From a virus (taxonomy: Duplodnaviria; Heunggongvirae; Uroviricota; Caudoviricetes), in the IMG/VR virus record IMGVR_UViG_2571042690_000020: DNA of 22,905 bases; one strand, written 5' to 3'. The notes beneath the pieces were generated by a model. The model was not told the origin of the DNA. It made no database searches and saw only the letters and a program-made list of their open reading frames with translations. This document shows, one piece after another, positions 6,131-16,822 of the stretch. The position numbers and the translations under genes were made by a program. How positions within the stretch are numbered: the first letter of the stretch is position 1; every line of letters begins with the position of its first letter.

Positions 6131-6967
6131 TCAGAAGTCAGCCAGCTGGTCGGAGGCTGCGCCCGTTGCGGTGAAGCGGTTCTGCGGATCGCCGTCCTGC
6201 GTGCGCAGTTTTTCCTTCAATGCTGTCAGCTCTGTGGTCAGTGACGTGATTTTCTGGCGGTCCTGCTGATGGCGGGTTTCCAGCACATTAAAACGGTCGA
6301 TAATGTCGGCCTGTGACGTTGCAACGCCTTCCACCGCTTCCTGAATTCGGGAGAAACTGGCGTCATCCGCTTTGCGGCCACGACCAATAATCCCCATTAC
6401 GCGGTTAAACCACTGGGTGCCTTCTTCCTGGCGTTGTTCTGCCATTTCGATGATTTCAGACTCGATGGCTTCGGAGATAAGCGGTGCTTCACCCTGGATA
6501 CTGTTGAACGTCATCACCGCCTGACGTTGCTGTGCCGTGAATTTCAGGCGCTCAGTGCCCAGGCTTGCCGGGGTGTCGGTCATCGCCAGCCCGACCAGAT
6601 AGGCGCGCCCGTTAACGGAGAACTGCGGGTGCAGTTCGATACTGGAATAGATTTTCTTGCCGTCAGCGACAAGCTGCTTCATGCGCTCGGTCGGTTCGAT
6701 TTCTGCATACAGCGCAGTACGTCCGGCCAGCGGACCTTCCGTAATGTCTTCCGTACTCAGTGCGGTGACATCGCCCATTGCGGAAAATTCGCTTGACGGA
6801 CATGGCGAGAGATAGTGCTCAACGTTCACGCGGGCAGCGTAAACATCCGGGTTGAAGTTCTCGGCGGCTTCACGCAGATGCACCGGACTGATTTCACGGC
6901 CATCAACAGTTGATCCGGAGACAGCCACGCGAAACTTTTTGCGGGATGTCTTTTTTTCATTAGCCAT
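6131..6967 (-). CDS. O: Capsid scaffolding protein (P2 gpO-like)
   Basis: Alignable by eye with P2 gpO (FRVAVSGSTVDGREIS..., YLVGLAMTDTPASLGTE). Start set at the internal ATG 6967 (MANEKK...), which has an AGAGGGG RBS, rather than the ORF-track start at 7000. Confidence 0.85.
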   Translation of the reverse strand: MANEKKTSRKKFRVAVSGSTVDGREISPVHLREAAENFNPDVYAARVNVEHYLSPCPSSEFSAMGDVTALSTEDITEGPLAGRTALYAEIEPTERMKQLVADGKKIYSSIELHPQFSVNGRAYLVGLAMTDTPASLGTERLKFTAQQRQAVMTFNSIQGEAPLISEAIESEIIEMAEQRQEEGTQWFNRVMGIIGRGRKADDASFSRIQEAVEGVATSQADIIDRFNVLETRHQQDRQKITSLTTELTALKEKLRTQDGDPQNRFTATGAASDQLADF

Positions 6968-7000
6968 AGTTTTTGCCCCTCTGACTGGTTCTTCAGTCAT

Positions 7001-7121: not shown

Positions 7122-8873
7122 ATGATTCAGGACGCTTTTGTGCGCCAGCGTGCGCGGCAACTTTACTGGCAGGGTTATCCGCCCGCAGAAATATCACGTC
7201 TGATGGGAATAAACCCGAACACGATTTATGCGTGGAAAAAACGTGACCAGTGGGATGAAACGCCACCCGTGCAGCGTGTCACGCAGTCCATCGATGCGCG
7301 CCTCATCCAGCTTACTGAAAAACAGAATAAAACAGGCGGTGACTTTAAGGAAATAGACCTGCTGACCCGGCAGCTTAAAAAGCTGCATGATGGCCAGCCG
7401 GATGTGATGGCCGCAGGAAAGAAAGGCCGGGCGAAAAAACTCAAAAATCATTTCACGCCGGAACAGATTGCCGCACTGCGGGAAAAAATCATCAGCAGGC
7501 TGGAGTGGCATCAGCGGGGCTGGTTTGACTCCCTGACCCTTTGCAGGGAAGCCGGGATACGTAACAGGATGATCCTGAAATCCCGACAGATTGGGGCGAC
7601 CTGGTATTTTGCACAGGAAGCACTGCTGATGGCGCTGCGTGACGATGTGGCGCAACCTTACCAGCGTAACCAGATTTTTTTGTCTGCGTCGCGTCGTCAG
7701 GCGTTCCAGTTTAAAAGCATTATTCAGAAGGCCGCGGCTGAAGTTGATGTGGAGCTGAAAGGGGGCGATAAAATCATCCTCTCCAACGGCGCAGAGCTGC
7801 ATTTTCTCGGCACTTCTGCTGCGTCGGCACAGTCCTATACGGGCAATTTTTATTTTGATGAATTTTTCTGGGTCAGTCGCTTTGCTGAACTGCGCAAGGT
7901 GGCTGGCGCTATGGCAACCCTCAGCGGACTGCGGCGCACCTACTTCTCCACGCCATCCACCGAAACGCACGAGGCATACGCCTACTGGAACGGCGACCGC
8001 TGGAACGAGAAAAAGGCCTCGCATAAACGCCAGCGTTTTTCTGTGGACTGGAAAACGCTGCATAATGGGCTTATCTGCCCTGACCGGACGTGGCGGCAAA
8101 TTGTCACGCTGGAAGATGTGGTTAATCACGGCTGGAAACACACCGATATCGACGAAATTCGTGATGAAAACACCGAAGACGAGTTCCTCAATCTCTATAT
8201 GTGTGAGTTTGTCCGCGAAGGGGAATCGGCATTTAACCTGAATATCCTGATTGGCTGCGGTGTTGACGGATACGACGACTGGAAAGACTGGAAACCTTTT
8301 GCTCCCCGCCCGATGGGGAATCGTCCGGTATGGATTGGGTATGACGCAAACGGCAGTAGTGGCAACGGCGACAGCGGCGCTGTGTCCGTGGTGGTTCCTC
8401 CGGCTGTTCCTGGCGGCCGTTTTCGAACGGTGGAGACGCGACGCGTTCAGGGGCTGGAGTTTGAAGAACAGGCCAGAGTCATTGAAGAGTTCACGTGTCG
8501 CTACAACGTGGAACACATCGGCATTGATGTGACGGGCGGGAACGGGGAGGCTGTTTATCAGATAGTGAAGCGGTTTTTCCCTGCTGCTATTCCGTACACC
8601 TTCACGCTGTCATCAAAACGGTCGCTGGTACTGAAAATGCTGCAAATAATGCGTGCCGGGCGGTGGGAATACGATCGCGCCGAACGCGAGCTGGTCGCGG
8701 CCTTTAACGCCGTGCGTAAGGTGAAAACACCGGGCGGCTTTATCACTTACGAAACGGACCGCGCGAGGGGGATCAGCCACGGCGACCTTGCGTGGGCAAC
8801 CATGCTTGCTGTCATTAACGAACCAATTGGCGGCGAAGGAGAAAACGAGCGTTTCATGGTTATGGAGTTCTGA
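7122..8873 (+). CDS. P: Terminase ATPase (large) subunit (P2 gpP-like)
   Basis: 583-aa ORF upstream of and overlapping the portal gene; size and synteny match P2 gpP. Confidence 0.9.
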   Translation: MIQDAFVRQRARQLYWQGYPPAEISRLMGINPNTIYAWKKRDQWDETPPVQRVTQSIDARLIQLTEKQNKTGGDFKEIDLLTRQLKKLHDGQPDVMAAGKKGRAKKLKNHFTPEQIAALREKIISRLEWHQRGWFDSLTLCREAGIRNRMILKSRQIGATWYFAQEALLMALRDDVAQPYQRNQIFLSASRRQAFQFKSIIQKAAAEVDVELKGGDKIILSNGAELHFLGTSAASAQSYTGNFYFDEFFWVSRFAELRKVAGAMATLSGLRRTYFSTPSTETHEAYAYWNGDRWNEKKASHKRQRFSVDWKTLHNGLICPDRTWRQIVTLEDVVNHGWKHTDIDEIRDENTEDEFLNLYMCEFVREGESAFNLNILIGCGVDGYDDWKDWKPFAPRPMGNRPVWIGYDANGSSGNGDSGAVSVVVPPAVPGGRFRTVETRRVQGLEFEEQARVIEEFTCRYNVEHIGIDVTGGNGEAVYQIVKRFFPAAIPYTFTLSSKRSLVLKMLQIMRAGRWEYDRAERELVAAFNAVRKVKTPGGFITYETDRARGISHGDLAWATMLAVINEPIGGEGENERFMVMEF

Positions 8874-9919
8874 TGAGCAGAAAAAATAAAAAAGTGCGCA
8901 TGAGTTCACGCATTGATCTCGCTGATGCGCTCAGGAAAGAATCATCGCTCAGTGCATTCACATTTGATGGTCCTTATCGCCTGACCGGGCATGACCTGCT
9001 GGACAATATGTACTGTGCTGATAACGGGCGGTGGTATGAAACCCCGGTGGACTGGTACGGTCTGGCAAGAGCAGCCCGGCAAACGTCCTGGCATCAGTCT
9101 GCGCTTTACTTTAAGCGCAATGTATTACTCGGTTGCTACATCCCGCACCCGCTGCTTTCCCGGCAGGATTTCTCGGCGCTGGCGCTGGACTGGTTTGTGT
9201 TCGGTAACGCATTCCTTGAGCTTCGAAGCAATATGCTCGGCGAACCGCTTAAATTACGGCACGCCCTGGCGAAATACATGCGACGCGGAAGCGATCTTGA
9301 ATCATGGTGGTATGTGCAGGATGGCAAGGACGCGTTTCAGTTTCGTCCTGGCAAAGTGTGCCACCTGATGAATCCGGATATTAACCAGGAAATCTACGGC
9401 ATGCCGGAATATCTTGGCGCATTACTCTCGGCCAGCCTTTCTCATTCGGCGGACATGTTCAGAAAACTGTACTACGACAACGGATCCCACGCCGGGTGCA
9501 TCATCTACATCGGTGCAGCGCAGGTAAACCGCGAAAGCATGGACTCCCTGAAAGAAACGCTACAGGGGGCACGTGGTGGTGGTGCGTTTAAAAACGTGCT
9601 CATTCATGCGCCCAACGGGGGCAAAGAGGGGGTGCAAATTTTGCCGTTCCAGCAGATCACCGCAAAAGATGAATTCATGAATGTTAAGGCGGCATCCCGT
9701 GATGATGTGCTGGCTGCGCACCGCGTTCCGCCGCAACTGATGGGGGCGATGCCGGGCGAAAAAAGTGCGTTTGGCGATGTGGAGAAGGCAGCGCGGGTTT
9801 ACGCAATTAACGAGCTGATGCCCGTTATGGAGGCTATGAAGCACATCAATGACTGGCTTGGCGAAGAGGTGATCCGTTTTAACTCTTATGCTCTTCTTGA
9901 TGAAAAAACAGCCCCGTGA
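8873..9919 (+). CDS. Q: Portal protein (P2 gpQ-like)
   Basis: 348-aa ORF whose start overlaps the terminase stop (TGATG), as in the P2 PQ operon. Confidence 0.85.
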   Translation: MSRKNKKVRMSSRIDLADALRKESSLSAFTFDGPYRLTGHDLLDNMYCADNGRWYETPVDWYGLARAARQTSWHQSALYFKRNVLLGCYIPHPLLSRQDFSALALDWFVFGNAFLELRSNMLGEPLKLRHALAKYMRRGSDLESWWYVQDGKDAFQFRPGKVCHLMNPDINQEIYGMPEYLGALLSASLSHSADMFRKLYYDNGSHAGCIIYIGAAQVNRESMDSLKETLQGARGGGAFKNVLIHAPNGGKEGVQILPFQQITAKDEFMNVKAASRDDVLAAHRVPPQLMGAMPGEKSAFGDVEKAARVYAINELMPVMEAMKHINDWLGEEVIRFNSYALLDEKTAP

Positions 9920-9935
9920 TGGGGCTGTCCTTTTT
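9903..9935. terminator. Bidirectional intrinsic terminator between convergent genes
   Basis: AAAAA-ACAGCCCC-GTGAT-GGGGCTGT-CCTTTTT: an 8-bp GC-rich stem flanked by an A-run and a T-run. The portal stop codon lies in the loop. Confidence 0.6.
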
Positions 9936-10458
9936 ACCAGAGTTGAACCATTTTCTGGGTGCCGTCAGGCTTGAGATTATCAATTTCAGAGAGAACGTAA
10001 TATTGAATGGCTTCACAAACGGTGGTGTAGGGTGAATTACCTTCTTTAAGTGGCACGATATTATTATTAACGCGAACCTGTATTTCATCGTTATACATTG
10101 CGATCGAAACAGGAGTGTGCACGAACGCGACTTCGCCAGGTGTGTCGTCAACCACCGTTTCAATACTAAAAGTCAGTTTTCGCTCATCATTGCTGCCCCG
10201 TGCTTTGGGGGTAGCGGCAGGGATCTGGGATAAAGGCATTCTGCGAAATCCTTCGGCTGCTTCCAGTCCGCATGAAACGTAATGCTGGCGATTACCGTCG
10301 CTATCTGTCCAGGTCTGTGATGGCAGCTCCAGCGAGATTTCATAAGCATCAACAATGCCCTGGGCAAGGCGTACAAGCGGGGTCAGATCTTCATTGCGGC
10401 GAAAGCTCTCCTTTACCTGCTCCCGTTTTTCTCTTAACTGCTTGTAATTAATGACCAT
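9934..10458 (-). CDS. Hypothetical cargo protein (unknown function)
   Basis: 174-aa ORF from an internal ATG at 10458 with a GGAGG RBS (the ORF-track start at 10497 lacks one). Convergent with the portal gene, in the position P2 uses for accessory genes such as old/tin. Confidence 0.55.
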   Translation of the reverse strand: MVINYKQLREKREQVKESFRRNEDLTPLVRLAQGIVDAYEISLELPSQTWTDSDGNRQHYVSCGLEAAEGFRRMPLSQIPAATPKARGSNDERKLTFSIETVVDDTPGEVAFVHTPVSIAMYNDEIQVRVNNNIVPLKEGNSPYTTVCEAIQYYVLSEIDNLKPDGTQKMVQLW

Positions 10459-10558
10459 AAGACAGCCTCCATTGATTTCTTTGCTCGTATTTTGCACTTA
10501 TGAAGTATGGTCGGCAAGGTGCCGTATCGCTGACGCGCTTCGCTTGTCTGCTGCTTCG

Positions 10559-10585
10559 CCGGGGCATAAAAAATTTATGCCCCGG
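10559..10585. repeat. Perfect 27-bp palindrome CCGGGGCATAAA-AAA-TTTATGCCCCGG
   Basis: 12-bp perfect inverted arms around a 3-bp centre, about 100 bp upstream of the 9934..10458 gene start. No flanking T-run, so not a classic terminator. Confidence 0.5.
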
Positions 10586-10956
10586 CTCTCCAGCTCCTGT
10601 ATCAATCAGATAATTTCACGACGCCTTCCAGTTTATCGCCACCATCGACGGTCAGACTCTTACGCAATTCCACCGCGTTGACTGCATGTTCTCGCTGCCT
10701 CAGTGCGATTTTGACGGCCTTACCTTTCACCCCATCAAATCAAAAGCCCTCACGCCTTTTTCATGCTCAGCGTGAGAAATATGGCCATTCTGTTGTGTCT
10801 CTGCGACATCGTTCAGGGAATGCTATTTACCCCCTGAAACGCGGGCTGTTCCCCCGTCACCTGCGCGCAGAAAAAGCGCGTTTTTTTGTGCACGCACGGA
10901 TCCTTGACGGATCCAGCCGCCATGCGGGCCGGAAGGGTAAAAAGTCGTTCAAAAAA

Positions 10957-10984
10957 ATTGTGCAAATTTGTGCACTTTTGTGCA
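10957..10984. promoter_or_regulatory. Three phased copies of (A/T)TTGTGCA at 10-bp spacing
   Basis: ATTGTGCA, TTTGTGCA and TTTGTGCA begin at 10957, 10967 and 10977, one helical turn apart, upstream of a TTGACC -35-like hexamer at 11004-11009. Candidate operator or activator array. Confidence 0.35.
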
Positions 10985-11084
10985 GGTAAGCATGCCTATA
11001 TATTTGACCGTGGCTTGCCTTTGATGTAGTTTATACGTCACAAAAACCACAAAACGTGGTTATGATTTCTATGAGGGGGTTGAT

Positions 11085-11120
11085 ATGAAAAAAATGTATG
11101 ATGAATTTGATGGTTTCTAA
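11085..11120 (+). CDS. Candidate 11-codon leader peptide (MKKMYDEFDGF)
   Basis: GAGGGGG RBS five nt upstream of the ATG. The stop sits 19 nt before an intrinsic terminator and about 60 nt before the first operon gene. Confidence 0.3.
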   Translation: MKKMYDEFDGF

Positions 11121-11139
11121 GCTACGTTGACCTCTAATG

Positions 11140-11168
11140 AGGCGGGGATTTGCTCCCCGCCTTTTTTA
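11140..11168 (+). terminator. Intrinsic terminator/attenuator hairpin
   Basis: AGGCGGGGA-TTTGC-TCCCCGCCT followed by TTTTTT, ending 13 nt before the ATG at 11182. Confidence 0.6.
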
Positions 11169-11181
11169 TGGATGAAATAGG

Positions 11182-11679
11182 ATGAACCCAATAACACTAC
11201 AAATCATCAGCAATGCTATTGTTCTGCTTGGCGTTTTGGTTGCCATTGGAACCATTATCTACAATGTGCGTACCGCAAAAAAAACTCAAACGGCCAACTT
11301 TCTTTTTGAGAGTCGGCAAGATATGCAATATATAGAGTCATTGCATACCCTGAAACAAGTGCATCGTTCAGGCAAATCATTTCGTTCTTATGTTTTTCCT
11401 TGTGATGGTTGCATAATAACAGATGAAGAAATGGCCGAGCGTCGAAAATTTCAATATATTTTAAATTTTTACGAGCGAGTTGCTGTAAGTATTCGTGAAG
11501 GTATTTATGATGAAAAAATGATAAAAAGAACATCTTACACAACAGTTGTAGAGACATATGATATTGCCGAGCCATTAATTAAAGCAATCAGAGAAAGCAT
11601 TAATTCGGATACTACATATCAAGAATTCGAATGGTTAGTAAGAAGATGGAAAGCTAATCCTTTACGGAAAAACAAATAA
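11182..11679 (+). CDS. Hypothetical membrane-anchored protein (N-terminal TM helix, ~140-aa soluble domain)
   Basis: 165-aa ORF. Residues 5-27 are hydrophobic (TLQIISNAIVLLGVLVAIGTIIY). Markedly AT-rich coding sequence compared with the flanking phage genes. Confidence 0.6.
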   Translation: MNPITLQIISNAIVLLGVLVAIGTIIYNVRTAKKTQTANFLFESRQDMQYIESLHTLKQVHRSGKSFRSYVFPCDGCIITDEEMAERRKFQYILNFYERVAVSIREGIYDEKMIKRTSYTTVVETYDIAEPLIKAIRESINSDTTYQEFEWLVRRWKANPLRKNK

Positions 11680-11718
11680 TGTTTTACCCTTTAATTTACA
11701 AGTAACACAGGGGGAAGT

Positions 11719-12561
11719 GTGACACAGAATCCGTTTTCATTTTATGACTTTTTGGGCTATCTAATTCCAGGTGGGTTATTCCTGTTTATCCTTTTTTTGT
11801 TTTCTATTGAAATTAACCCTGTTTATATAGAAGGTATTCTTAACCATATCCTGAAATATAAAGAAATAATAAGTGTATTTATATATGTGGTATTAATCGT
11901 TCTATCATATATTTCAGGTCACTTCATATCTATTCTATCATCCTGTTTAATTGAAAAATACATGAACAGTAAACTTGGGTATCCTTCAATTTATCTGTTT
12001 TCTAAAAGAAGCTCCCTGAAAATAAAACGACATAATACTAAGTTCAGTATAGTTAATTTTATTCGTGGAGTTTTTTTATTTCCTGTATCAGCTTTTGATA
12101 AAGCAGAACATCATAAAACCACACTGCATTCTATACTTATTAAAGTCTTTTGGCCGCAAATACGAGATGGTTATATAAATGTTTTTTCTGTATCTACGCT
12201 ATATCGACGTAAGGGCTTGAGGGGCGATCTTTTTCGCCTTGCTTATCATTATGTGTATGAACATTCTAAAAATCATCAGGTGAAAATGCAAAACTATGTT
12301 GCTTTGTATGGTTTTTGTAGAAACATTACATTTGTTTTTCTCGCTTCAGTCTGGTTGCTTATGTTCCTGCTCCTTCTATCCTTTTTAATAGATATAAATA
12401 TCAGACTGTTACCTTTTTGTTTTCTTCTCTTGTTTTGTATTGCTGCATCCCGAGTATTTTATTATGGTTTTGTTAAGTATTATCGCCGCTATTCTCTTGA
12501 GGTTTTAATGGCATTTGCGGTACTTCAGCACGATAAAAAAACTTCGGCAATTTCATCATGA
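11719..12561 (+). CDS. Hypothetical polytopic inner-membrane protein (4-5 predicted TM segments)
   Basis: 280-aa ORF with a GTG start and AGGGGGA RBS, 39 nt after the preceding gene. Several long hydrophobic segments (FLGYLIPGGLFLFILFLF, IISVFIYVVLIVLSYISGHFISIL, ITFVFLASVWLLMFLLLLSFLI, LLPFCFLLLFCIAASRVFYYGF). Very AT-rich. Confidence 0.6.
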   Translation: MTQNPFSFYDFLGYLIPGGLFLFILFLFSIEINPVYIEGILNHILKYKEIISVFIYVVLIVLSYISGHFISILSSCLIEKYMNSKLGYPSIYLFSKRSSLKIKRHNTKFSIVNFIRGVFLFPVSAFDKAEHHKTTLHSILIKVFWPQIRDGYINVFSVSTLYRRKGLRGDLFRLAYHYVYEHSKNHQVKMQNYVALYGFCRNITFVFLASVWLLMFLLLLSFLIDINIRLLPFCFLLLFCIAASRVFYYGFVKYYRRYSLEVLMAFAVLQHDKKTSAISS

Positions 12562-12571
12562 TTTGAAACAT

Positions 12572-12597
12572 TGGCACCCTGTTAGCAAGGGTGCCAG
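12572..12597. terminator. Hairpin between convergent membrane operon and parR (putative terminator)
   Basis: GGCACCCT-GTTAGCA-AGGGTGCC, an 8-bp stem lying between the two convergent 3' ends. No strong T-run. Confidence 0.35.
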
Positions 12598-12644
12598 AAT
12601 GATGTGTTGGTCTGTATTTTATTAGTTCACATACAATTATCAGA

Positions 12645-12959
12645 TTATTCTGGGAATAAGGTCTGAATATTCTTTTTTATTTTATAAAAATTGCATTCAA
12701 CTCCGCTAGGCTGATTATCCTGGTATGTTTCCTTGATGCTAACGGTATTGAAGGGGAGGTTGTCCTCTGGCCATTCGGCCATCCAGTAGGCAAATGCTGG
12801 GTTGCGCTTTATGAGCGCTAGCCCAGCCAGAAAGGCCGCGCGTTGCGCGCGGCTGCGTTCGGAGGCTGGCAGGCTATCGAGGTAATTGCACGCCTCCTGT
12901 TCACTCTTGACGGCGGCGGGCTTCAGATAGAAACTTATCCGTCTGGTTGGTGTCGTCAT
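12645..12959 (-). CDS. parR: ParR-like centromere-binding protein (ribbon-helix-helix adaptor)
   Basis: Internal ATG at 12959 with an AAGGAG RBS, 5 nt after the parM stop. The N-terminus (RISFYLKPAAVKSEQEACNYLDSLPASERSRAQRAAFLAGLAL) resembles plasmid R1 ParR as I recall it. Confidence 0.6.
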   Translation of the reverse strand: MTTPTRRISFYLKPAAVKSEQEACNYLDSLPASERSRAQRAAFLAGLALIKRNPAFAYWMAEWPEDNLPFNTVSIKETYQDNQPSGVECNFYKIKKNIQTLFPE

Positions 12960-12963
12960 TGGT

Positions 12964-13923
12964 TTACTCCTTGTCCATTGCGTACAGCCCATTAACCAGA
13001 GCAAACTGTGGCACCCCGTCCGCGATGAAAGTCGCATTAACTCCGCAGACTTCGCGGATAGCGGGTGCCACAATCTCCGCCCCTCCACCGACAACCATCA
13101 CCCGCCCGTAACCCGAAAAAACCGCCAGCGCGCGGATCACGCGTTGTTTCAGTGTTTCTTCCTTTTCACGAATAACCGCCATCAGGCTGGCGTAATGCGC
13201 GTCATTGTGGATGTGCTGGCGCAGCCAGGCTTCATCATGGCGATGTTCGATAATGGTATTGGCGATGTGGTGACTGGTGCGCATACCGTTAGTGGCCATC
13301 ACCGACAGTACGGCATCGGCCATCAGGGAAACGCCTACGTGTGGATCGCAAAACACCTGGCTGATACCTGCCAGTTGCCCTTGAACCTTTGCCACATCCA
13401 GCGTGGTTCCGCCTAAATCCACAATCAGCAGGGATTCAAACGGACTCATGTCAGCCAGTGCTTTAAAGCCAGCCGGAATGGATTCAGGCATAACCCGCAC
13501 GTTACGGATAGTGAATGCTTCGCCGTTCTGGTATTCCACCGGGCGCATAACGTTCGCTTTTTTGCGGTTGATGTTGGCCATGTCCGGCTGTGCGTTTGTG
13601 TCGAAATACTCGCTCAGTGGCAGGGTGACAACCACATCCACCTCCTGTGGCGTGATGCCTGATTTGACCAGCGCGTGATGAATGGCGATTACATTCACAT
13701 CGCTGTACTGGTATTGCGTGTCGGTCGTCTGGACAAAGCGATCGCTAACCGGATCAAAACCATAGCGCACGCCATCAAGCATGTAGTTCGCGGGCTGCAT
13801 GCCACCGAACGGCGCAGACCATTCCGACTTGAAGCTGTTCGGGCTGATGGCGTTGCGGCGTTCGCCATTCTCAGTCCATGCCAGCTTGATGTTGGTGGAG
13901 CCGTCGTCGATACAAATTTTCAT
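12964..13923 (-). CDS. parM: ParM/StbA-family actin-like segregation ATPase
   Basis: 319 aa. The N-terminus (MKICIDDGSTNIKLAW...ISPNSFKSEW...YSDVNVIAIHHAL...VDVVVTLPL) tracks my recollection of plasmid R1 ParM closely, including the phosphate-binding DDGSTN block. Confidence 0.8.
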   Translation of the reverse strand: MKICIDDGSTNIKLAWTENGERRNAISPNSFKSEWSAPFGGMQPANYMLDGVRYGFDPVSDRFVQTTDTQYQYSDVNVIAIHHALVKSGITPQEVDVVVTLPLSEYFDTNAQPDMANINRKKANVMRPVEYQNGEAFTIRNVRVMPESIPAGFKALADMSPFESLLIVDLGGTTLDVAKVQGQLAGISQVFCDPHVGVSLMADAVLSVMATNGMRTSHHIANTIIEHRHDEAWLRQHIHNDAHYASLMAVIREKEETLKQRVIRALAVFSGYGRVMVVGGGAEIVAPAIREVCGVNATFIADGVPQFALVNGLYAMDKE

Positions 13924-13999: not shown

Positions 14000-16822
14000 T
14001 CATATATCGCTGCGCGTTTTTTGCTCATTTACGGGATTCGTAAGTCCCGTTTCTGTCTGTTTTTTGTTTCCACTGGTCAGGCCACCCCGCAGCAGGTCTG
14101 CTTTGCGGCTGGCGCGTTCAGTGGTTTCACTGATTCTCTGTGCGTGCTCTGCGTCGCGGATGGCGCGCAGCATGTCAGAAAGCACGGTAACGGGTGTTTT
14201 CATGGTGTTCTGGCCCTGCTGAAGTGTGGATGCCAGGCGTGCGGCGGCTTCAGGGTCTGATGCCCCCAGCTGTGCCAGATAGCTGGCGACCGGGTTATGG
14301 CGGATCTCCGTGCTGCTTACGCCATGATTACGGCTCAGGCGCTGCCAGAGCTGCGTGATTCGGCTGTCCGGGCGGGTATCCGGTTTGCGTACAATTTCAA
14401 ATCCCTGCGGTGCAATGATGCTGCCGTCAACGTACAGACTGCCGCCCCGTAACAGGTGCTGCATCTGTTGTTCACCGATATGCAGGCCGAGAGATTCAGC
14501 AGACTCCCGCCATTCTTTAGCGAGTAATTCGTGGTTATCAGGCAAAGGCCGCTGCTGTTTGCGGCTCTGTGTCCAGCTCTGCATTTCATCGCTGCTGTTT
14601 TTTGCCTGTTTGTCACGAAGCGAACGCATCAGCGCCCGGCGTTCGTGTCGTTTCAGTGAGCGCATCCATTCGTTCACTTCAACGCCGTCAGGGAGCTGCG
14701 GCCACGGTGCTGGCCGTTCTTCCGGCTGTTCTGTCCCGTTGTTGTCCGTTTCCTGTACACGGGGACAGTTATTGCCACGAGTCCAAGGGGCGGCAGGGCC
14801 GCCCTGAAGGTCAAAACCATTTTCGCGGGCGCTGTCTTCCGCTTCCGGTTTACGTCTTACCAGCTTCCAGTTATCCGGATGCGTGCACACACGGGAGGAT
14901 TCCCCGATGAGTGGTGACCAGATCCCGTAAATCTGTACGCTCTGTTCGCCGTAATCGTTCAGCTCATCTGCGAGGTCGTAGGCGGTGCGAATCAGGTAGT
15001 CCTTGCGTGGAACAAGCACGCCACCCTGTTTTTCAATGTAGGTGGCAAAACACCCGGCATCGGCGGCAGCGAGTACCGCATCCATTGCATCATCTTTCAG
15101 CCGTTGCGGGCCTTCCGGATTGCGTGCCATCTGGCTGGCAAGGCGGCGCAGTTCACGCCACACCTGACGGGAGGGGATGCCAAAGAACTGGAACTGACGG
15201 ACCCGGTGAAGGCGCGCCCAGCCGATGGCGCGCTCCACGCTCTCGGCCATTGATTTTCCGGTTTCGTGGTCCACGCGTGGCTTGCCCGTTTTCGGGTCGA
15301 TGCCATCCACGGCGCGGCTGTCCAGGTTCTTTCCGATGTAGGTGGCGATGTAGCTGGTTGGCGTGCCTTTTGAGCCGTCGACATACTCCACCTTAAAGCG
15401 CGGAGTAATATCATTGCCCAGCTCGTGGCGGTCTTCCTGAATGGCAATATCGCGGGTATGGGACACAATGGTGTCGATTTCTTCCGGATGTGCAAAGACC
15501 ATCATATGCCAGTGCACGGTGCCGTCATGATGAGGCTCCACCGTGCGGATGCCATACCAGCGCAGGCCGTCGCGGTTCAGTTTTTTGCGGACCGCCGCAA
15601 AAAACGTGTTAACCAGGTAATCGCTGGAGTCGCGCATTGTGGCCCCGTTCCATTTGGGATTCGGATGACCGTTCTCCGTTGTGGCGTGGTATTTTGACGG
15701 GCAGGTGACAGTCAGAAACACCGCTTTGTCGCCACGGGCTTCGGCCAGAAGTTCCAGTCCCTTCATGGTGGCCATCATTTCTGCCTTACGGTGAACCGGG
15801 TTACTTACTCCCGCGTAATACACTGTCTCGAGATCAATCGTGAACCCGTCTTCATTTTCCAGCATGAAACTTTTCAGGAAATCGCGTGTTTTCTCGCGCT
15901 GTGCGCGAAACTCGCTTAACGCGTCCTGGCTCAGATAGGGTGATGTTTTTCTGGAAACCAGACAGGCGGCGCGGAGTTGTTCTTCTCTCCACTCGCAACG
16001 TAACAGCCACAGTTTGCGTTTCCACCATTCCGCACAGGTCAGGCGAAGGATTGCGCCCGGCAGCAGCTCCGTGTCCGGTTCGTTCCTCCGGTCTTTGTCT
16101 GTTGTCAGTGCGTCATAATGTGGAGGCATGGCGTGCAGGTGTAACGCCATGCGGGCCAGCATCTGATACGCCTTCAGGGTTACATCCATGGTCAGCTCGC
16201 CATCGGTCGCGCCAAAGCCATCGCAGAGTTTTTCGAAGGTGCTGCTGAACATCGCCGCCGTCATGGTGGCCAGCGTCTGTATCTGGTGTTTGTTGAGCTG
16301 CGGCAGGTAAAGCAAATCGTCCAGGCGTTCGCGTCCGGCAAGGGAGCGATAACCCGGTGTCAGCCAGCGTCCGTCAGTGCTATCCAGACGTTCGAATATT
16401 TTGCGCAGGGTTCCGCGTGCATAGCGTTCCGCCTGCCAGCTCTTTTTGCCTTTCCGGCGATCGGCTTCCTGTTTTTTGCGCAGGAAGGAGAGGTGGCGAA
16501 TAAGCGGATCGCGCAGATAGGACGGCAGCAGGCGCAGCGAGGCCATGGCTTCATCCACCGCGCCACGTGCCTGTTTTCTGGCGTCTCCTGCCAGTGTGAT
16601 GGTTTTGTCCTGTTTTTCCTGTGCGTCCAGGCTTTTATTAATCAGGTTGCCCAGCGGCGTGGCTGAGAACGCCGCATCAGCCATTTCCTGGCGGCGCTCG
16701 TTCTCTGCCCGGTAGGCATCCAGCCAGGAGGAAAGCGCGGATTCAGGAGCGGGGATCCCCGTTCCTTCACGCCCCACTGCGTGGCGCGGTTGTTGCCAGT
16801 CCCTGAGGTACTCTGCCGTCAT
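14000..16822 (-). CDS. A: Replication initiation endonuclease (P2 gpA-like HUH rolling-circle protein)
   Basis: 940-aa ORF with an HUH-type metal motif (TVHWHMMVFAH) and a YIATYIGKN catalytic-tyrosine block, downstream of the early operon as in P2/186. Confidence 0.85.
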   Translation of the reverse strand: MTAEYLRDWQQPRHAVGREGTGIPAPESALSSWLDAYRAENERRQEMADAAFSATPLGNLINKSLDAQEKQDKTITLAGDARKQARGAVDEAMASLRLLPSYLRDPLIRHLSFLRKKQEADRRKGKKSWQAERYARGTLRKIFERLDSTDGRWLTPGYRSLAGRERLDDLLYLPQLNKHQIQTLATMTAAMFSSTFEKLCDGFGATDGELTMDVTLKAYQMLARMALHLHAMPPHYDALTTDKDRRNEPDTELLPGAILRLTCAEWWKRKLWLLRCEWREEQLRAACLVSRKTSPYLSQDALSEFRAQREKTRDFLKSFMLENEDGFTIDLETVYYAGVSNPVHRKAEMMATMKGLELLAEARGDKAVFLTVTCPSKYHATTENGHPNPKWNGATMRDSSDYLVNTFFAAVRKKLNRDGLRWYGIRTVEPHHDGTVHWHMMVFAHPEEIDTIVSHTRDIAIQEDRHELGNDITPRFKVEYVDGSKGTPTSYIATYIGKNLDSRAVDGIDPKTGKPRVDHETGKSMAESVERAIGWARLHRVRQFQFFGIPSRQVWRELRRLASQMARNPEGPQRLKDDAMDAVLAAADAGCFATYIEKQGGVLVPRKDYLIRTAYDLADELNDYGEQSVQIYGIWSPLIGESSRVCTHPDNWKLVRRKPEAEDSARENGFDLQGGPAAPWTRGNNCPRVQETDNNGTEQPEERPAPWPQLPDGVEVNEWMRSLKRHERRALMRSLRDKQAKNSSDEMQSWTQSRKQQRPLPDNHELLAKEWRESAESLGLHIGEQQMQHLLRGGSLYVDGSIIAPQGFEIVRKPDTRPDSRITQLWQRLSRNHGVSSTEIRHNPVASYLAQLGASDPEAAARLASTLQQGQNTMKTPVTVLSDMLRAIRDAEHAQRISETTERASRKADLLRGGLTSGNKKQTETGLTNPVNEQKTRSDI
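14027..14066. repeat. Copy 2 of ~41-bp element, inside the 3' end of gene A
   Basis: CATTTACGGGATTCGTAAGTCCCGTTTCTGTCTGTTTTTTG, overlapping the last ~22 codons of A. Confidence 0.5.

Follow-up and report, generated by a model that had tools for sequence, protein, structure and literature searches.

A 174-residue accessory gene between the portal gene and the putative cos site of a P88-type P2-like prophage

In phage P2, the accessory genes old and tin occupy the gpA side of cos, with transcription directed away from it, and the stretch from cosL to the portal gene Q holds only the terminator tQ. P2 Tin is a precedent for exclusion by a protein without known enzymatic activity. Morons, single genes that bring their own promoter and terminator and are set between conserved phage genes, are a concept reportedly developed in work by Juhala et al. 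in 2000 and Cumby et al. in 2012, and provide a second point of comparison. The gpA-gpQ interval of P2-like phages is a published hotspot of variability and defence (Rousset et al. 2022); it holds old/tin and many validated defence systems, and 20.8% of its cargo families match DefenseFinder. Here we describe a gene in a stretch of 22,905 nucleotides (nt) of viral DNA (IMG/VR record IMGVR_UViG_2571042690_000020), referred to below as the window. The window is an E. coli prophage, P2-like and belonging to the P88 group (Xuanwuvirus, Peduoviridae), and the gene in question, the target, is a coding sequence (CDS) of 174 amino acids (aa) that lies between gpA and the portal gene gpQ, inside the hotspot.

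The target is very probably a functional accessory moron, and it is well supported that it is real, dispensable and horizontally mobile in the manner of a typical moron. An anti-phage function is possible. The more specific reading that we favour, a prophage-expressed, non-enzymatic protective factor, is given a probability of roughly 0.35.

The gene, its signals and the boundaries of the insert

The target open reading frame (ORF) runs on the minus strand from an ATG at 10458-10456 to a TAA at 9936-9934. The gene, its signals and the segment that sets the window apart from P88 are given below.

8873-9919, plus strand: portal gene (gpQ), Pfam Phage_portal match at 8.3e-18
9884-10529: indel of ~645 bp relative to P88, comprising the diverged 3' end of the portal gene, the terminator, the target and, upstream of it, ~70 nt with the leader and candidate promoter, from the alignment with P88
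9908-9928, both strands: bidirectional intrinsic terminator common to the target and the portal gene, from a scan match and folding
9934-10458, minus strand: target CDS of 174 aa (PHROG 5091, RefSeq WP_000236495.1)
10466-10470, minus strand: ribosome-binding site GGAGG, 7 nt 5' of the ATG, invariant in 4 of 4 aligned copies
10489-10517, minus strand: candidate sigma-70 promoter, with -35 TTGCCG (10517-10512), a 17-nt spacer and -10 CAAAAT (10494-10489), proposed from a reading of the sequence only

A first-pass annotation of this DNA had proposed a 174-aa gene at 9934-10458 with a strong GGAGG ribosome-binding site, convergent with the portal gene and sharing a bidirectional terminator with it, and all of this was borne out. 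The coordinates of the ORF were exact, the ribosome-binding site was found at 10470-10466, and the two convergent genes are separated by 14 nt from stop to stop. The hairpin at 9908-9928 folds at -18.8 kcal/mol (z -4.1) on the plus strand and at -21.5 kcal/mol (z -5.5) on the minus strand, a U-run follows the stem on both strands, and the loop contains the stop codon of the portal gene (9917-9919). On the basis of its folding and the U-runs on each strand, it is therefore a credible bidirectional intrinsic terminator.

A GTG-started reading of the target (187 aa, from 10497) was also considered and is unlikely. The N-terminus reads MVINY in close homologues and M-[TSV]-[IV]-[TN]-Y in most of the wider family, and in family members called longer this motif stands ~12 residues in; the ATG start is preferred because the N-termini of the homologues share the motif. 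Both hexamers of the candidate promoter, and all but one base of its spacer, are identical in four copies (E. coli ST131-type, O111, Salmonella and PhiR44_2). The window contains fewer copies of the Ogr-type late-promoter motif TGT-N12-ACA than expected by chance, with none upstream of the target or in the control region of scaffold and terminase, so this motif is uninformative.

The target is a real gene under purifying selection. The ratio of non-synonymous to synonymous substitution rates (dN/dS) came to 0.086 when the target was compared with the E. coli O111 copy and to 0.061 with a Salmonella copy, with a dS of ~0.2 and 21 synonymous versus 5-7 non-synonymous differences in these comparisons, and the overall range was 0.06-0.14.

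We aligned the window with P88 and found that identity ends in the last portal codons (~9884) and restarts at 10530, with sharp boundaries. Target-free E. coli genomes match the query only as far as 9888-9901. Within the diverged portal 3' end (9884-9919), the residues FN(S/P)YALLD persist despite numerous synonymous changes, whereas the five C-terminal residues differ, being EKTAP here and TQPTS in P88. Because the portal end is diverged yet still coding, the insert seems to have arrived through recombination with another, diverged P2-like phage at the portal 3' end and not by random insertion. The target is missing from P88, an inducible phage, and from four relatives (P88_4B11, Shae_phiSM, Chuche and phage 503458); copies are present in PhiR44_2, in an O111 prophage and in a Salmonella prophage, and the cargo further along differs among these three. 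Two marks of a moron were thus observed, namely presence or absence between collinear close relatives and a terminator of its own.

We then surveyed 5426 complete E. coli genomes. The target was present at 403 places in 397 of them (~7%) and was intact in 395 of these 397 carriers. The junction between the portal end and the gene end was intact in 397 genomes, equal to the number with the target, and the P88-type portal was found at 1205 places in 1079 genomes. These counts indicate that about one third of P88-type prophages carry the target, invariably at the same junction. Carriers were common among ST131-type genomes of extraintestinal pathogenic E. coli (ExPEC) and O111/O26 genomes of enterohaemorrhagic E. 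coli (EHEC).

The PHROG 5091 family and its genomic sites

The target matches PHROG 5091 with an E-value of 1.4e-67, residues 1-168 of 174 aligning with profile positions 1-164 of 164. The same family was matched by 49 of 49 aligned relatives, which matched no other family beyond isolated marginal hits. The sensitive homology and structure searches that had been suggested for this gene thus gave a full-length family assignment and led to no family of known function: PHROG 5091 has no annotated function, and no counterpart was found in Pfam, NCBIfam or the PDB. The earlier impression that the protein carries no recognisable motif also held, as Pfam, NCBIfam and PADLOC returned nothing for the target beyond a chance LYR match (E 0.17), and Pfam returned isolated marginal matches only for the 49 relatives. 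Homology to a structural or packaging protein was looked for in Pfam, the PHROG categories, the PDB and BFVD, and none was found.

A word-indexed search recovered enterobacterial relatives only, and a scan of a genome collection with a narrow alignment recovered two loci. An exhaustive profile search of 1.84 billion representatives returned 87 sequences, most of them 155-175 aa long and aligned end to end with the target at 22-34% identity. The named members are all called 'hypothetical protein' and come from Enterobacterales (E. coli, Salmonella, Trabulsiella, Klebsiella, Serratia, Pectobacterium, Xenorhabdus and Providencia). Two groups of candidate homologues were rejected. Designed helical-repeat proteins, which appeared in a narrow-profile PDB search with E-values down to 3e-10, were gone with a broader profile and are an artefact, and the giant proteins P0031, P0086 and P0088 contain Ig/cadherin repeats that match one beta-hairpin motif repeatedly and are not homologues. 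The target is already catalogued, but only as 'hypothetical', and no member of its family is characterised. Table S5A of Rousset et al. 2022 enters the identical protein, WP_000236495, under that description, and it does not appear among the tested systems named in the text of the paper.

The target is predicted to be an acidic, soluble alpha+beta protein of ~20 kDa with an isoelectric point (pI) of 5.0. Across the family the median pI is 5.1 and none exceeds 6.5, and the highest 19-residue hydropathy among 49 members is 1.73, which indicates no clear transmembrane segment. The AlphaFold2 model of the target has a mean confidence score (pLDDT) of 90.5. Aromatic or aliphatic residues occupy most of the conserved positions (Y39, L43, L45, W50, Y60, V61 and F97), and these are assumed to form the hydrophobic core. 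A TV-x-DD-x-P loop is conserved as well, and K152 is near-invariant across the family and replaced by Q in the E. coli clade. Judged from the alignment, nothing in the conserved residues looks catalytic. The nearest folds are protein-binding modules, for example the FP domain of PI31/Fbxo7, secretion chaperones and immunity proteins, and no close neighbour of the predicted fold was found among solved structures or predicted viral ones.

The relatives are always single genes, and they have no constant neighbour. Their sites are as follows, with L numbers denoting individual loci.

L010, L017 and phage CharmingMan (L022): lambdoid prophages, between antiterminator Q and holin
L024 and L026: lambdoid prophages, just 5' of the lysis genes
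L004 and L025: temperate myophages with E217-type tails, between spike and sheath initiator
L016, L018 and L027: temperate myophages with E217-type tails, after an Arc/antirepressor island and before a Dit-like gene
L023: temperate myophage with an E217-type tail, before the tape-measure gene
L012: another P2-like prophage, after ogr and adjoining HicAB
L006 (Trabulsiella): another P2-like prophage, adjoining GpA

Family members occur in classical moron slots, for example between Q and holin in lambdoid prophages, and their insertion points in late regions vary between several prophage types. The homologue in L010 comes just past a tR'-like terminator and is directly followed by one of its own, and a terminator likewise stands directly 3' of the homologue in L016. 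The CharmingMan homologue lies beside TerB-like and TciB-like genes. One clade occupies a non-phage chromosomal site between metabolic genes, seen in several samples. The family was found in 5 of 50,697 phage records, each of them P2-like or of the Q-antiterminator (lambdoid) type. Within Enterobacterales, PHROG 5091 may spread as a cassette of promoter, gene and terminator that has reached at least four prophage architectures.

The islands that hold relatives (L016 3552-4404, L012 8725-9359 and L004 3097-3692) often also contain toxin-antitoxin-like pairs, and some lie within tail-gene modules. The pairs near relatives are HicA with HicB or DUF1902, and Gp49 (HigB-like) with a helix-turn-helix protein.

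The slot beside the putative cos site

Over positions 9700-13000 the window shows 100% identity to the Escherichia phages vB_EcoM-705R2 and 'Entero_P88_NC_026014(23)' from an O25b:H4-ST131 host. The other features around the target are listed below.

6131-7000, minus strand: capsid scaffold
7122-8873, plus strand: large terminase
10558-10586: backbone palindrome hairpin with a perfect 13-bp stem, folding at -31.6 and -29.3 kcal/mol (z -8.0 and -6.6), a U-tract being absent from both strands
10602-10730, minus strand: backbone ORF of 42 aa (P88 gp22; 'FIG00640306' in PhiR44_2), outside the insert
10930-10950: putative cos region
11182-11679, plus strand: DUF4760 protein, 165 aa
11719-12561, plus strand: multi-pass membrane protein, 280 aa
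12645-13923, minus strand: ParM/ParR partition pair (StbA/Plasmid_stab_B), ParR being ParR-like
14000-16822, minus strand: GpA replication endonuclease

P88_4B11 (LR595891) is a linear record whose two ends abut at 10939/10940, and the putative cos position was inferred from this. The position falls in a G-rich stretch, between GCGGGCCGGAAGGGTA and AAAAG, and the 19-mer of P2 cos was not found in the window at up to 3 mismatches. The target stands on the portal side of the putative cos, which lies ~480 bp upstream of it, and at this distance of less than 500 bp the target would be at the extreme end of the packaged chromosome. The first-pass annotation had placed the gene where P2 encodes old, and in this respect it was mistaken, as old and tin are on the gpA side. 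Its description of the slot as an accessory, often anti-phage one was correct in part: the target is a dispensable accessory gene inside the gpA-gpQ hotspot, and the portal-cos sub-slot was either empty or filled by the target in the relatives sampled. Comparison of this slot across related prophages accordingly showed the gene as present or absent, without alternative cargoes in the relatives sampled, and variable cargo among the relatives examined lay on the parR/gpA side of cos.

In the window, the position and orientation equivalent to those of old/tin are taken by the DUF4760 gene and the 280-aa membrane-protein gene (11182-12561). Because this module is the exact positional equivalent of P2 old-tin, it is a stronger defence-cargo candidate than the target. 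The pair has a GC content of 26-39%, compared with 47-50% for the target and ~52% for the backbone. The membrane protein gave a weak PADLOC match to Csx27 (1.1e-5), and a mention of DUF4760 was found in the literature on Serratia genomic islands.

Between the target and the DUF4760 gene lie 720 nt without a long gene. A mini-ORF in the region 11086-11163 (plus strand) has 11 codons (MKKMYDEFDGF and stop) and its own GAGGGGG ribosome-binding site, and a strong hairpin with a T-run at 11139-11163 lies just 5' of the DUF4760 start at 11182. Together they look like a leader peptide and attenuator arrangement. The palindrome at 10558-10586 is conserved in P88-like phages and stands ~20 nt past the portal stop in insert-free phages such as P88; an atypical terminator and a site for protein binding are both conceivable. 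In every P88-like phage examined, the 42-aa backbone ORF is found in the segment from the putative cos to the portal gene, and its identity in the Salmonella prophage is 78.6%. According to the literature, about one quarter of P2-like phages carry a ParM/ParR pair. The mechanical call of ParR here is 149 aa (TTG start) and overlaps ParM, and annotated records give a shorter protein of ~104 aa.

Possible functions and comparison with known systems

In the reading that we favour, the target is a self-contained moron consisting of one gene with its own ribosome-binding site, a probable promoter of its own and its own terminator. The cassette probably entered a P88-type prophage between cos and portal by recombination at the portal 3' end. 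Lysogens would produce the protein, which may also be made upon phage entry, and it would act by one-to-one binding of a protein partner and not by catalysis. As with P2 Tin, the outcome would be a lysogen shielded from competing phages or satellites. We favour this reading because of the hotspot setting, the moron architecture, the occurrence in temperate elements only, the toxin-antitoxin-like neighbours and the chromosomal orphan copy, the last of which fits a benefit to the host. The terminators belong to that architecture, and they would be counter-productive if the gene were merely part of a late operon. The purifying selection, the lack of a constant partner and the resemblance in fold to protein-binding modules also speak for this reading. 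That PHROG 5091 as a whole is an unrecognised family of single-protein, non-enzymatic phage-conflict factors, whether in exclusion/immunity, against satellites or in counter-defence, is a tentative proposal and somewhat doubtful.

Several observations weigh against the protective reading. In the screen of Rousset et al. 2022, only 3 of 8 untested P2-hotspot systems showed activity. The portal-cos sub-slot did not show exchange of many cargoes in the relatives sampled, which are a small sample. The target had no match in PADLOC-DB v2.0.0, where the 49 relatives gave only two single marginal matches (E 0.005-0.009), and WP_000236495 was not found in the DefensePredictor supplements searched. Searches of literature and supplements by accession and PHROG identifier led only to the table of Rousset et al. 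2022, and the protein was named in no publication found. The candidate promoter agrees with consensus at 8 of 12 positions, below the threshold of the sigma-70 scan, which found no site of at least 9/12 upstream of the target; the promoter call is thus weak. Most homologues are co-oriented with late genes, and because of this and of the lambdoid copies just past a tR'-like terminator, their expression may be mainly late-lytic rather than lysogenic. Small acidic proteins, moreover, are equally typical of anti-defence inhibitors.

This last point leads to the main rival, an anti-defence (counter-immunity) protein. Here the target would be a small acidic inhibitor or sponge that is made at entry or during lytic growth, is perhaps packaged, and acts against host immunity; small acidic binders are typical of that class, and we consider this possible but unlikely. 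Less probable still is a lysogenic-conversion factor that alters host physiology or fitness (stress tolerance, colonisation or virulence) and takes no part in conflict between phages. Such a role would agree with the frequency of the gene in ExPEC ST131-type and EHEC O111/O26 genomes and with the chromosomal orphan copy. The Q-holin slot is a site of lambdoid toxins and fitness genes, the CharmingMan copy is near TerB-like and TciB-like genes, and the P2 hotspot also bears non-defence cargo such as cytolethal distending toxin (Rousset et al. 2022). However, the protein has no signal peptide, no transmembrane segment and no secretion, toxin or regulator domain, and a DNA-binding regulator is unlikely for an acidic protein.

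We regard as similarly improbable a dispensable helper of the phage's own development, be it an assembly or packaging chaperone or a late virion-associated protein. The target adjoins the portal gene and cos here, relatives lie inside tail modules elsewhere, and the fold class is common to secretion chaperones. A structural role is nevertheless disfavoured because the position of the gene shifts in collinear tail modules (L004 and L025 versus L016, L018 and L027) and because the target is missing from the inducible P88; other close relatives lack it too. It is also convergent with the P-Q operon and not a member of it, it has no structural or packaging homology, and one copy of the family lies outside any phage. 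The single junction in E. coli would be consistent with one insertion that spread by linkage, as expected of a non-functional or purely selfish remnant carried with the portal gene. This explanation is very improbable in view of the strong purifying selection, the full-length family with conserved core residues across Enterobacterales, the intact gene in nearly all carriers, and the conserved ribosome-binding site and leader.

The lack of a characterised relative or close structural neighbour and the frequency in pathogenic E. coli lineages make the gene a reasonable subject for experiments, yet it is no surprise to a specialist. A defence or counter-defence role would add to the P2-hotspot catalogue a compact single-gene, non-enzymatic mechanism of 174 aa with a new fold, and would show that the cos-to-portal segment, which holds only tQ in P2, is able to bear cargo. 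If it is neither, it is still a common uncharacterised prophage gene, including in pathogenic E. coli lineages.

Compared with P2 old/tin, the target is likewise a non-essential accessory gene in the gpA-gpQ interval with its own transcription unit, but it lies on the other side of cos. No similarity to P2 Tin was detected (hhalign probability 0.3%, 10 aligned columns), and the domain search found no OLD-type ATPase or TOPRIM domain in the target. In structure, the closest comparisons are alpha+beta sandwich binding modules, namely the PI31/Fbxo7 FP domain, type III secretion chaperones, polymorphic-toxin immunity proteins, P1 DarA and AcrIIA11. Among morons, the target differs from HK97 gp15 and lambda bor/lom in that it is predicted to be cytoplasmic and not a membrane or outer-membrane protein, and from many morons in that its GC content is just slightly under that of the backbone. 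Like HK97 gp15 and lambda bor/lom, however, it is a presence/absence indel in near-identical phages, with its own terminator and a candidate promoter.
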